Origin: Bdellovibrionales bacterium
Lineage (GTDB): Bacteria; Pseudomonadota; Alphaproteobacteria; UBA9219
NCBI GenBank assembly: GCA_041662785.1
Contig: JBAZRW010000001.1
Coordinates: 261,256 to 325,255, forward strand
DNA length: 64,000 nt
Direction of reading: 5' to 3'
Part shown: in pieces, positions 41,266 through 44,717 of the stretch
How positions within the stretch are numbered: the first letter of the stretch is position 1
How the letters are laid out: every line of letters starts with the position of its first letter
Notes under the pieces: generated by a model
Database searches by the model: none
Told to the model about the DNA's origin: nothing
What the model saw: only the letters and a program-made list of their open reading frames with translations
Program-made: the position numbers and the translations under genes

Positions 41266-42921
41266 ATGTCTCTCTACGCAGCTATGCAGGTCGCCGTGGG
41301 CGGTCTTACGGCCCAATCGGCTTCTATCGGTAACATTTCCGATAATCTGGCCAACTCGCAAACAACAGGGTTCAAGGCCATTGAAACGCGGTTCGAATCA
41401 TTGGTCACTCAATCCAACCAATTTTCAAACGATCCAGGCGGCGTGCGCGCCACACCTTATTATACCAACAGTGAACAGGGAAACCTTGTTCAGTCTTCAA
41501 ACGCGACGGCGTTGGCCATCTCTGGCCAAGGCTTCTTCCCCGTTCGTCCCGCCGTTGTCGGAGCGGATGGCACAACGACATTCGGCAACACCACCTACTT
41601 CACCCGTTCTGGCGATTTCAACCTCGACAAAAGCGGATTCCTTGTTAACGGCGGTGGCTATTATCTGACAGGTTATGGCGTCGATCTTAACGGTGTCGTT
41701 GATACATCTTCCGCAGACCCTATTCGTCTGTCTGACCTTCTTGATAATCCCGTTGGGACATCAGCTGTCGATTATGCCGCAAACCTTCCGTCGAGCGAAG
41801 ATGTCAACTTTGTCTCTTCACCTTCCACTATTCAAGTCTATGACTCGTTGGGCGGCGCGCACGACATGACCTTTACATGGACAAAAACGGCAACCAGCGA
41901 ATGGAGCCTCCATATGGTTGTGCCCGATGCGGTTTCAGATGGAGGCACGCCAGCGACCTATACCGATTACGACGTCACCGTTCCCTTTATCTTCAATAGC
42001 GCAACCAACGCTGGTACTATTGACTCGCTAGGGGTCGCCTCCACAGCAACCACGGCAAGTGTTGGGATCACGAATGGAGTAACCTTAACCGCAGCCGCAT
42101 CAGGCGTGGAGGGCAATGATGTCGACATGACCATTGCAGCGGGTTCTGCCGCCAACCTTTATACCGTCACCATTACAGATGGAACCACCACGGAAACCTT
42201 TACCGACATCACAAACGTACCGGCTAACGCACTATGGGGAAATTTGAACACGGCCATCGGCGCGCTACCATCCGTGCTGGTGACATCTGCTGTCAACGGC
42301 ACGGGCAACCTTGATCCCACAACGCTAACTCTTCCAACAACCTATAGCCTTACAGGTGGCACAAATGCCGAAGTTTACACGATTGTCGACAATTCGGCTG
42401 CTGTAGAGAACAAGGTTGAGGTTCTTTTTGATCTTAATTTCGCGGGCGCAGGCGCCCAAACCGTAACGGTCGATTTTGGCACCTATGACACATCCAAAGG
42501 CGTCACCCAGTTCGACGACACGACAGTGTCGGTGACAACCTTTGATCAAAACGGTATCCCTCGCGGTTCGTTTCAAAGTCTGTCCATCGATTCAAACGGC
42601 TATGTCGCCTTGAACTACGACAACGGACGCACACGCACCATCGCGCAAATCCCTGTCGTTCAGTTTTTTGCCCAAGACAAGCTGCAACGCGTTACAGGTG
42701 GCGCGTATGAGCAAACGCTGGCTTCTGGATCAGCACGTTATAGCTCTCCTGGCACCAACGGCGCAGGCACGATCGTCGGCAACGCGCTTGAAGGATCAAA
42801 CGTCGATATTGCCGATGAGTTTACCAAGCTTATTCAAGCGCAGCAGGTTTATTCGGCCAACGCCAAAACGATCACGACAACCAACAACATGATGCAAGAA
42901 GCGATCAACATTATCCGGTAA
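41266..42921 (+). CDS. flgE: Flagellar hook protein FlgE (with a large inserted outer domain)
   Basis: Start at MSLYAAMQVAVGGLTAQSASIGNISDNLANSQTTGFKA (GAGGTG RBS). Conserved C-terminus ...YSANAKTITTTNNMMQEAINIIR. Confidence 0.85.
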   Translation: MSLYAAMQVAVGGLTAQSASIGNISDNLANSQTTGFKAIETRFESLVTQSNQFSNDPGGVRATPYYTNSEQGNLVQSSNATALAISGQGFFPVRPAVVGADGTTTFGNTTYFTRSGDFNLDKSGFLVNGGGYYLTGYGVDLNGVVDTSSADPIRLSDLLDNPVGTSAVDYAANLPSSEDVNFVSSPSTIQVYDSLGGAHDMTFTWTKTATSEWSLHMVVPDAVSDGGTPATYTDYDVTVPFIFNSATNAGTIDSLGVASTATTASVGITNGVTLTAAASGVEGNDVDMTIAAGSAANLYTVTITDGTTTETFTDITNVPANALWGNLNTAIGALPSVLVTSAVNGTGNLDPTTLTLPTTYSLTGGTNAEVYTIVDNSAAVENKVEVLFDLNFAGAGAQTVTVDFGTYDTSKGVTQFDDTTVSVTTFDQNGIPRGSFQSLSIDSNGYVALNYDNGRTRTIAQIPVVQFFAQDKLQRVTGGAYEQTLASGSARYSSPGTNGAGTIVGNALEGSNVDIADEFTKLIQAQQVYSANAKTITTTNNMMQEAINIIR

Positions 42922-42956
42922 TCGGCTGTTGGTCCTTTTATAAAGGATAAAGGAGC

Positions 42957-44717
42957 ATGTCTCTCACTTCGGCACTCACAATCTCGCTTTCCGGCATCCA
43001 AGCGGCCTCAACGCAGCTGGAGCTAACGTCCAGCAACATCTCGAACGCGGCCACAACGGGTTATACGGCGAAGCAGACGACGTTGGCCTCGGCAACGCTT
43101 GGCTCCATTGGCGGCGGTGTCAAGGTGGTCGGATTTACACGCTCGGAAAACAACGCTCTTTACACGACCCTGACTAAGGCAACATCGAGTGCATCCCTGC
43201 GCGCAACGCAAGACACATACCTGCAACAGATTCAAGACATCCTTGGCACCAGCCAAAGCGATTCGCCCACACTGACCGTCGCGCTTTCTGATTTTATCAA
43301 TGCGTGGAAAGATCTGGCCGCTTCACCGGAAAGCTTGGTTGCTAAACGCCAAGTTGTTCAAGACGCCTCAACCTTAGTGGATGAAATTCAACGCATTGCC
43401 TCGGAAACCGAATCGCTTGATCGTCAATGTTCAAACGATATCGGCAACACAATCTCTGATCTCAATTCTTATCTGGGACAGATCAAAGACCTTAACCAAA
43501 AAATCTCGCAAGCGACAAATTCCCGCCTTTCTTCTGGTGACCTTCAAGATCAACGCGACCAGCTTGTACTGAAGGTAGCCCAGATTACAGGCGTTACCGT
43601 TCTTGCCCGTGATTTTGGCCAAATCGCGCTCTATACCGCTACAGGCTATCAGCTTGTCGATGGCTCCTCGGCTCGCACTTTTAGCTTTGACGGGACGAAT
43701 GTCACAACGACGACCAACACTGGTTTATCCCTCAATGCCGCTCTCAGCGGAGGCTCCCTTGAGGCTCTTGTCAATTTTCGAGCCACAGCCGTGACCGTCA
43801 GTGCCGACCCCGCAACGAATGTCATCCAAAAAATGCGCAGCCAGCTTGACTCCATCGTCTCCGCCTTTACCGGCCTGACGACAACGGCAACATCAGGCGC
43901 AATCTCCTTTGCAACGGCTTACAACTCTCTGCCTGACGTGACATTTGCCGCCACAACACTGACTAATGCCCTAACGTTTACGGCAGCAAGCTCAGGGTCA
44001 TTGGGAAACAACATCACCATCACGTTGGATAACGATCCCGTGAATATCGGCAACTATATGGCGACGATTACGAATGGCACGACAACGGAGGTTTACGACA
44101 ACCTATCCGATGGTGCCGTACCAGGAACACACGACGTCTGGACAAACTTGGCGGCTGCCATTGCAGGAGGGCCATCAACACTGGTTACAACGGCCGTCGA
44201 TGGAACAGGCAATCTTGACCCGACAACGCTGACGCTTCCTTCCTCTCCGGCATATCAGCTGACGGGCGGGCACAGCAACATCGTTCCCGTTCAAGCGGGG
44301 GAACTGGCCACGGACTTCTTCACCGGAACAAATCGCACGACCTTCGCCGTCAATGAAGCTCTCTTAGACGGAACGGCCACAGCCAAAGCAGCAGCAGCCT
44401 CAATCGTTACCGATGCTCTTTTAGACGCCACACGCGTTTTTTCTGCAGACGGGCTGGCGGTAGCCAGCGCCAACTATTCCTCGCTTGTTACTTCTAGTCT
44501 GACGACCTTCCAGCAAGCCGCCAGCAATATTTCCACGCTCAAGACAACGGATGAAAACGCGCGAGCCTATCTTGAGGAAAAATTTTCCAATGAAACGGGC
44601 GTCAACGTTGATAACGAGCTTGTCAACCTGACCACGCTTCAAAACTCTTACGCCGCCTCAGCGCACGCCATGTCCGTTGTCAAAGACCTTTTTACAACGC
44701 TTGAGCAGCTCTTATAA
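42957..44717 (+). CDS. flgK: Flagellar hook-associated protein 1 FlgK
   Basis: MSLTSALTISLSGIQAASTQLELTSSNISNAATTGYTAKQ... and a C-terminal ...NSYAASAHAMSVVKDLFTTLEQLL rod/hook-family domain. Confidence 0.8.
   Translation: MSLTSALTISLSGIQAASTQLELTSSNISNAATTGYTAKQTTLASATLGSIGGGVKVVGFTRSENNALYTTLTKATSSASLRATQDTYLQQIQDILGTSQSDSPTLTVALSDFINAWKDLAASPESLVAKRQVVQDASTLVDEIQRIASETESLDRQCSNDIGNTISDLNSYLGQIKDLNQKISQATNSRLSSGDLQDQRDQLVLKVAQITGVTVLARDFGQIALYTATGYQLVDGSSARTFSFDGTNVTTTTNTGLSLNAALSGGSLEALVNFRATAVTVSADPATNVIQKMRSQLDSIVSAFTGLTTTATSGAISFATAYNSLPDVTFAATTLTNALTFTAASSGSLGNNITITLDNDPVNIGNYMATITNGTTTEVYDNLSDGAVPGTHDVWTNLAAAIAGGPSTLVTTAVDGTGNLDPTTLTLPSSPAYQLTGGHSNIVPVQAGELATDFFTGTNRTTFAVNEALLDGTATAKAAAASIVTDALLDATRVFSADGLAVASANYSSLVTSSLTTFQQAASNISTLKTTDENARAYLEEKFSNETGVNVDNELVNLTTLQNSYAASAHAMSVVKDLFTTLEQLL

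Follow-up and report, generated by a model that had tools for sequence, protein, structure and literature searches.

About 120 FlgE subunits build the tube of the flagellar hook, with domain D0 inside and D2 outside, and the hook continues into a junction of 11 FlgK and then 11 FlgL subunits (PMC9254593, PMC12221982). That axial proteins carry extra outer domains is known already. The FlgE of Campylobacter jejuni (5jxl) and Helicobacter pylori has two additional domains, D3 and D4, which lie further out than D2 on the hook surface, and in epsilon-proteobacteria these domains add contacts and stiffen it (PMC9254593); the outer domains of flagellin (D2/D3 and beyond) lie between the conserved terminal helices and are beta-rich, variable in number, and gained and lost (PMC11532411). 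Contractile tail sheaths also bear a surface-exposed accessory domain, a beta-sandwich (Pfam PF17481, Phage_sheath_domII), solved in phiCD508 gp55 (9gb1), DSY3957 (3hxl), the Halogeometricum borinquense sheath (9ezm), T4 gp18 (3foa, 3fo8) and phiKZ gp29 (3j0h). The accessory domains of sheaths are directed outwards from the tube, neither assembly nor contraction requires them, and cementing of the tail or adhesion have been proposed as their roles (PMC9230969). Here we describe a 64-kb stretch of bacterial DNA (the window, 64,000 nucleotides of assembly GCA_041662785.1) in which the hook protein FlgE and the hook-associated protein FlgK share a module that is very probably homologous, in both sequence and fold, to this sheath domain. 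What was unexpected in this locus is an outer domain with a traceable phage origin.

The features on which the comparison depends are the following, with positions in the window, residues counted in amino acids (aa), and module limits taken from the envelope of a profile hidden Markov model (HMM):

41266..42921, + strand: flgE, hook protein, 551 aa, starting at ATG 41266 and not at the upstream GTG 41119
42040..42372, + strand: sheath-like module of FlgE, aa 259-369, in a loop of domain D2
42268..42336, + strand: most conserved stretch of the FlgE module, PSVLVTSAVNGTGNLDPTTLTLP, from the codon comparison with the FlgK copy
42957..44717, + strand: flgK, hook-associated protein 1, 586 aa, assigned by Pfam and NCBIfam
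43932..44282, + strand: sheath-like module of FlgK, aa 326-442, after the helical D1 domain
44172..44240, + strand: most conserved stretch of the FlgK module, PSTLVTTAVDGTGNLDPTTLTLP, from the codon comparison with the FlgE copy

By BLASTP with composition-based statistics, residues 262-365 of FlgE and 329-438 of FlgK (nucleotides (nt) 42049-42360 and 43941-44270) were aligned with 55 of 111 positions identical (50%), 68% positives, 83 bits and E=4e-21. A sequence-only reading of this DNA had claimed a homologous insert with conserved positions in both proteins; the claim held, and its coordinates agree with this alignment within about 20 nt. Taking into account that both copies contain 20-23% Thr and are rich in Ala and Gly, and that the unrelated Thr-rich repeat proteins P0012 (invasin-like) and P0015 (Cna_B) were weakly matched in the profile search, the similarity could be a by-product of low-complexity composition in two surface regions. 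However, the Smith-Waterman score of the two modules was 234, while 2000 shuffles of the FlgK module gave a mean of 48.9 +/- 8.5 and a maximum of 89 (z=21.8), and therefore the composition does not explain the match. The 55 invariant columns are distributed along the whole module, and the models, which are confident, have an identical order of secondary-structure elements in both copies. A compositional origin, which the sequence-only reading had itself raised against its claim, has practically no chance of being correct. Outside the module, the likeness between FlgE and FlgK was limited by BLASTP to the N-terminal D0 segment (16/45, E=6e-5), in accordance with the remark that the two proteins are otherwise alike only at their ends. 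No copy beyond those in FlgE and FlgK was detected by tblastn in the window.

Modelled with AlphaFold, the module of about 110 residues is made of beta-strands and one long helix. The input contained no sheath sequence, the alignment used for the module alone consisted of flagellar modules only, and all the models were monomers. The module alone was predicted with a local distance difference test (pLDDT) of 88.9 and a template modelling score (pTM) of 0.81, which supports the suggestion that it folds independently. In the model of full-length FlgE, built with 105 FlgE homologues, residues 259-369 interrupt domain D2 and have pLDDT values of 93-97. The module is absent from both FlgE (445 aa) and FlgK (468 aa) of L005, a close relative whose FlgE flanks are 84-87% identical to those of the window FlgE, and the alignments close cleanly over the gap; this agrees with the proposal that the module was added to the outer parts of both proteins. 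As modelled, the shared module is an autonomous domain.

In the comparison with PF17481, the FlgE module reached 14.6 bits (E 0.046) and the FlgK module 18.0 bits (E 0.004), and 16 of 28 flagellar modules matched this family at E<0.01. The only one that passed the gathering score of 31.4 was the four-copy FlgL-like protein P0004, with 32.2 bits as a whole protein. Direct comparisons with sheath proteins gave clearer values. The two window modules were aligned by hhalign with nine sheath domains at 98.7% probability, E=4.2e-16 and 40% identity over 97 columns. By BLASTP the best pair of a sheath domain and a flagellar module had 51% identity (E=2e-26), the window FlgK module matched the domain of sheath P0014 with 40% identity along 110 residues (E=2e-12), and the window FlgE module was 36% identical to sheath P0016 (E=2e-6). 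When a profile made only of flagellar modules was used to search 5.8 billion proteins, it retrieved solely N-terminal fragments of tail sheaths, with E down to 2e-22; a word-indexed search of the same number of proteins with the FlgE module alone gave nothing. The sheath partners were assigned to tail sheath by the PHROG families phrog_23 and phrog_279, and one of them sits in a prophage tail-gene region. The homology is therefore to a domain of bona fide tail sheath proteins.

The fold led to the same place. The module has the three-dimensional fold of the solved sheath accessory domains, its matches in BFVD were mostly tail sheaths, and the independent model of full-length FlgE gave the same result. 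The nearest sheath subfamily has the motifs G..GN.I.V, E.Y.NI and FW.NL..AIN in common with the module, which belongs, as a diverged member, to the superfamily of sheath accessory domains. The module differs from the PF17481 domain in several respects: here the carrier is a flagellar axial protein exported by the flagellar type III channel, the window copies are below the gathering score, and the FlgE, FlgK and FlgL modules of the Micavibrio clade have a C-terminal motif of their own, NGTGNLDPTTLTLP, which is absent from sheaths. The two proteins that carry it, FlgE and FlgK, have complete flagellar D0/D1 signatures and lack the conserved N- and C-terminal sheath core. In contrast with the sheath matches, no structural or sequence similarity was found between the module and D3/D4 of C. 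jejuni FlgE, nor any fold similarity to the solved outer domains of flagellin or of the FliD cap; the module is analogous, not homologous, to the Campylobacter domains and to those of flagellin.

Among cultured phages, the closest relatives of the flagellar modules are the ordinary sheaths of the Ralstonia phages Hyacinthe, Raharianne and Albius (MT740743, NC_054955, MT740726), to which the first FlgK module of L009, one of the related loci, is 48% identical over 67 residues (E=1e-10). The window's own modules had no match in the phage collection at E<1e-3; for the FlgK module this was a tblastn search against 50,697 phage records. It was also possible to see, in the sheath P0018 (720 aa), two to three tandem copies of the domain, which mirror the tandems of FlgE, FlgK and FlgL. 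In a prophage of GCA_052692575.1 (L018, 7650-8291) the sheath gene was called as two fragments of 105 and 96 aa, and it is possibly decayed or frameshifted.

A key aspect is the age of the two copies in the window. The sequence-only reading had noted a recognisable DNA similarity between them, and the stretch that it quoted is present, with 46 of 59 nt identical (78%). Considering this stretch, and that flgE and flgK are adjacent on the same strand, a recent recombination or gene conversion between the two genes could explain the likeness. The codons argue against it. In the best-conserved part (PS.LVT.AV.GTGNLDPTTLTLP) there are 20 identical residues and 11 of the 20 codons differ, all of them at the third position, with no first- or second-position difference in the codons of identical residues; the DNA resemblance therefore comes from selection at the protein level and not from recent gene conversion. 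Moreover, the copies are only about 50% identical overall, and a repeat search detected no long DNA repeat between the genes. The FlgE modules of the window and of L001-L003 cluster together (97% bootstrap) and the FlgK modules do likewise (89%), so that the duplication is older than these four genomes. An explanation by gene conversion is thus very improbable, and the recent intragenic recombination proposed by the sequence-only reading was not borne out. The FlgE and FlgK copies of the window are old paralogues under purifying selection.

The ratio of nonsynonymous to synonymous substitution rates (dN/dS) was 0.09-0.16 in the FlgE module and 0.03-0.06 in the FlgE core, the module evolving 3-4 times faster, and 0.04-0.15 in the FlgK module versus 0.05-0.12 in the FlgK core; all these figures are rough, since dS is close to saturation. 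At the level of sequence, they indicate purifying selection on the modules that is somewhat relaxed in FlgE. Diversifying selection on the exposed domain was also considered and had no overall support (dN/dS 0.04-0.16, with dS near saturation).

The distribution of the domain was narrow and irregular. The two-sequence profile, run exhaustively with HMMER against 1.84 billion representative proteins, had only 21 matches, which were FlgL, FlgK, FlgE, a DUF1217 protein and tail sheaths, plus two likely spurious repeat proteins. The third axial protein of the window is:

44730..45704, + strand: flgL, hook-associated protein 3, 324 aa, with Pfam Flagellin_C

The module HMM found no module in this flgL. 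In relatives, the orthologous FlgL proteins have 1-4 copies, located near residue 177-186, and the matches called flagellin by Pfam are these orthologues: on both flanks of the insert the window FlgL is 44-65% identical by BLASTP to P0001, P0004, P0007, P0009, P0010 and P0021. There was no true flagellin with the module among the 21 matches in the 1.84 billion representatives. The notion that further flagellar proteins might share the module thus stood for the FlgL and a DUF1217 protein of relatives, and it failed for flagellin.

Among eight related loci in a genome collection 4 or 5 have the module, and L005, L006 and L007 do not. The copies in FlgE/FlgK/FlgL, counted by a scan of the fetched loci with the module HMM, were:

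window and L001-L003: 1/1/0
L005-L007: 0/0/0
L016: 1/0/0
L015: 1/0/1
L009: 2/3/0
L017: 1/3/0
L011-L013: 2/2/4
L010: an isolated FlgL with two module copies

That the module occurs either in both FlgE and FlgK or in neither, as the first eight loci suggested, was ruled out by L015 and L016, which have it in FlgE and not in FlgK. Among the loci examined, a small sample, none had the module in FlgK but not in FlgE. Of 120 representatives of FlgE clusters, 91 have no copy, 22 have one, four have two and three have three, inserted in D2 at about residue 215 or about residue 259, and carriers and non-carriers are interleaved on the tree of FlgE core sequences. Given the patchy copies and the several sites, the domain was repeatedly inserted, tandemly multiplied and lost. 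In Micavibrio-like alphaproteobacteria the insertions lie in loops of FlgE, FlgK, FlgL and a DUF1217 protein, with 0-4 tandem copies per protein. In L014 a DUF1217 protein encoded between flgL and flbT (7411-8568) has one module copy at residues 87-197, and the FlgK of that locus has none. The FlgK proteins of L006 (7357-8877) and L007 (7318-9093) have no sheath-like module but a different insert, which looks like a repetition, within FlgK, of its beta-rich segment together with the 'VIQKLR' helix that comes next.

Regarding the origin, we lean towards a transfer from phage to flagellum followed by spread inside the genome. An ancestor would have captured the domain from the sheath gene of a phage or prophage; its insertion into a loop of a new host protein is plausible because it is already an inserted domain in sheath proteins. 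The captured domain would then have duplicated among the adjacent flgE, flgK and flgL genes. The parsimony argument for a phage source is that the fold is widespread in sheaths and the flagellar occurrence is narrow. The first FlgE and first FlgK modules of L009 are sisters (88% bootstrap), in L015 the FlgE and FlgL modules match each other best (58%), and the FlgL of L011 contains a duplicated two-module cassette with 69-70% identity.

These same-genome pairs also bear on the possibility that flgE, flgK, flgL and the DUF1217 gene each captured the domain independently from phage sheaths and that it did not spread inside the genome. The sites of insertion are at least five in number, two of them in FlgE, the sheaths fall among the flagellar modules in the neighbour-joining tree (with low support for their position), and some flagellar modules are as near to sheaths (51%) as to other flagellar modules, as independent captures would predict. 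However, the cross-protein pairs of L009 (88%) and L015 (58%), the recurrence of two-module cassettes across proteins, and the motif that Micavibrio-clade FlgE, FlgK and FlgL modules share and sheaths lack are better understood by copying between neighbours, and we regard separate captures as unlikely. A transfer in the reverse direction, in which the variant arose in flagellar proteins and a single phage sheath lineage took it from its host, is in our opinion improbable; it agrees with a module tree that does not settle the branching order and with the closest sheaths being a narrow subfamily that has the helix motif FW.NL..AIN like the flagellar modules, and the wide occurrence of the fold in sheaths speaks for the phage as donor.

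The window FlgE is 88-90% identical to the FlgE of Micavibrio metagenome-assembled genomes and 100% identical to a protein of a 520-kb metagenome-assembled contig, and the host is, to judge from these identities, a predatory alphaproteobacterium that resembles Micavibrio aeruginosavorus. Cells of Micavibrio have one polar flagellum, which is sheathless and whose genes are expressed in the attack phase (PMC3189940). Taking the evidence as a whole, the explanation that we find best, and consider likely, is that of an autonomous domain derived from a phage sheath and carried as an outer add-on by the proteins of the hook and the junction. After export and assembly the module would be located outside D2 in each of the about 120 FlgE subunits and on the exterior of the 11 FlgK subunits, because it is inserted in a loop of D2 in FlgE and beyond D1 in FlgK, and it would constitute the outermost extra layer of the hook and of the first ring of the junction. 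Additional lateral or axial contacts between subunits could then stiffen or stabilise the universal joint of a fast-swimming predator. By analogy with the epsilon-proteobacterial hook, and with the cementing proposed for the accessory domains of sheaths, this mechanical role is our first, and tentative, choice of function. The sequence-only reading had named glycosylation or host interaction as putative shared surface functions.

A sheath-derived domain could also have a non-mechanical role, as a surface coat against phages, antibodies or proteases, as a weak adhesin for carbohydrates or cell surfaces, or as a tolerated passenger. The very labile presence and copy number among close relatives would be expected of a trait that is accessory or part of an arms race, the FlgE module has an evolutionary rate 3-4 times that of its core, and adhesion has been suggested for the accessory domains of sheaths (PMC9230969). 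On the other hand, dN/dS lies far below 1 for either module and gives no overall diversifying signal, and a general coat or adhesin agrees poorly with a domain that is restricted to hook and junction proteins and absent from the far more abundant flagellin. The 20-residue motif, constant across the paralogues despite many synonymous differences, argues against the passenger. The non-mechanical roles as a group are thus possible but rather doubtful; among functions we would rank the mechanical one first, surface masking or adhesion next, and a nearly neutral passenger last, the latter because of the purifying selection and the invariant motif. It is also conceivable, although we hold it as speculation, that the surface domain of phage sheaths is a portable flagellar building block, copied as 0-4 units into FlgE, FlgK and FlgL, that polymerises together with the axial lattice and forms a continuous coat over hook and junction, its copy number tuning the thickness of the coat and the stiffness of the joint in the various Micavibrio-like predatory lineages. 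If so, a structural part would have been exchanged directly, by genetic means, between two unrelated helical nanomachines.

Several points weigh against a sheath-derived add-on with these properties. With 14.6 and 18.0 bits against a cut-off of 31.4, the window modules do not reach formal membership of PF17481. The branching point of the sheaths in the module tree has weak support (16-22% bootstrap) and the monophyly of the Micavibrio-clade modules only 37%; with such weak deep bootstraps, the direction and the number of transfers rest on parsimony. The selection figures carry the roughness already mentioned, and the models behind the proposed outer layer are those of monomers. Lastly, close relatives often lack the module, and its combinations across FlgE, FlgK and FlgL are irregular. 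The module is therefore an accessory that a working hook does not need, and a continuous layer from FlgE to FlgK is not obligatory.

With respect to what has been published, a full-text search of the literature, of incomplete coverage, gave no report linking sheath domains to the hook, FlgK, FlgL or the outer domains of flagellin, and we found in the searchable literature no earlier report of one domain common to FlgE, FlgK and FlgL. Such sheath links do not appear in the main survey of the outer domains of flagellin (PMC11532411), and a review of sheath evolution mentions only an architectural resemblance to flagellin (PMC9230969). The evolutionary sources of the extra hook domains of Campylobacter and Helicobacter are obscure; in this case the accessory domain of the tail sheath of phages can be given as the source, and the locus would be an example of a phage structural domain reused in a motility organelle of the host. 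Extant lineages show the process at work: FlgE has two sites of insertion, cassettes have been copied from one neighbouring gene to another, and there are tandem expansions as well as clean losses. The FlgE proteins with 0, 1, 2 and 3 copies make a natural series for probing the effect of an outer layer on hook mechanics, and a compact domain that tolerates insertion in loops and export through the flagellar channel may be of use in flagellar display engineering. With the present domain libraries the domain goes unnoticed in these proteins, since its matches are below the Pfam threshold.

The gene calls were supported by the domain content and by the homologues. FlgE contains the Pfam domains Flg_bb_rod, LlgE_F_G_D1, FlgE_D2 and Flg_bbr_C and scored 262 bits with NCBIfam TIGR03506 (cut-off 70); together with its position in a flagellar operon, rod, D1, D2 and C-terminal domains identify it as the hook protein. 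Both the mechanical open reading frame (600 aa, from GTG 41119) and the public annotation P0027 (591 aa) start flgE too early. MSLYAA is the N-terminus in 105 FlgE homologues, and since the homologues support that start, the protein has 551 aa and begins with MSLYAAMQ at ATG 41266. In FlgK we found the helical D1 domain (FlgK_D1, PF22638, 4.6e-39) and the rod-type terminal segments (Flg_bb_rod, PF00460, and Flg_bbr_C, PF06429), and the score with TIGR02492 was 235 bits (cut-off 171).

The genes flgE, flgK and flgL form a flagellar operon on the + strand, with lexA upstream on the opposite strand. The order lexA, flgE, flgK, flgL and a PF10119 gene is common to all the loci scanned with the module HMM. 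The latter gene, directly 3' of flgL (45713-47203, + strand), encodes a 496-aa protein with a PF10119 'methyltransferase regulatory' domain; it has the same place in L009, L011-13, L015, L016 and L017, with or without modules, and its product may be a modifier of axial proteins. Between gltX and lexA the window has a ComEC-type competence gene (37216-39609, + strand); in L016 and L017 gltX adjoins lexA without it. The flgEKL operon is flanked by two groups of Dot/Icm type IVB secretion genes, at 31049-35260 and 51337-55576 (both - strand). One group consists of a TrbI/DotG-like gene, DotH/IcmK and two DotI/IcmL genes, and the other of a DotL-like coupling protein and DotM. The neighbourhood DotH/DotI-gltX-lexA-flgE is found in L016 and L017 as well.

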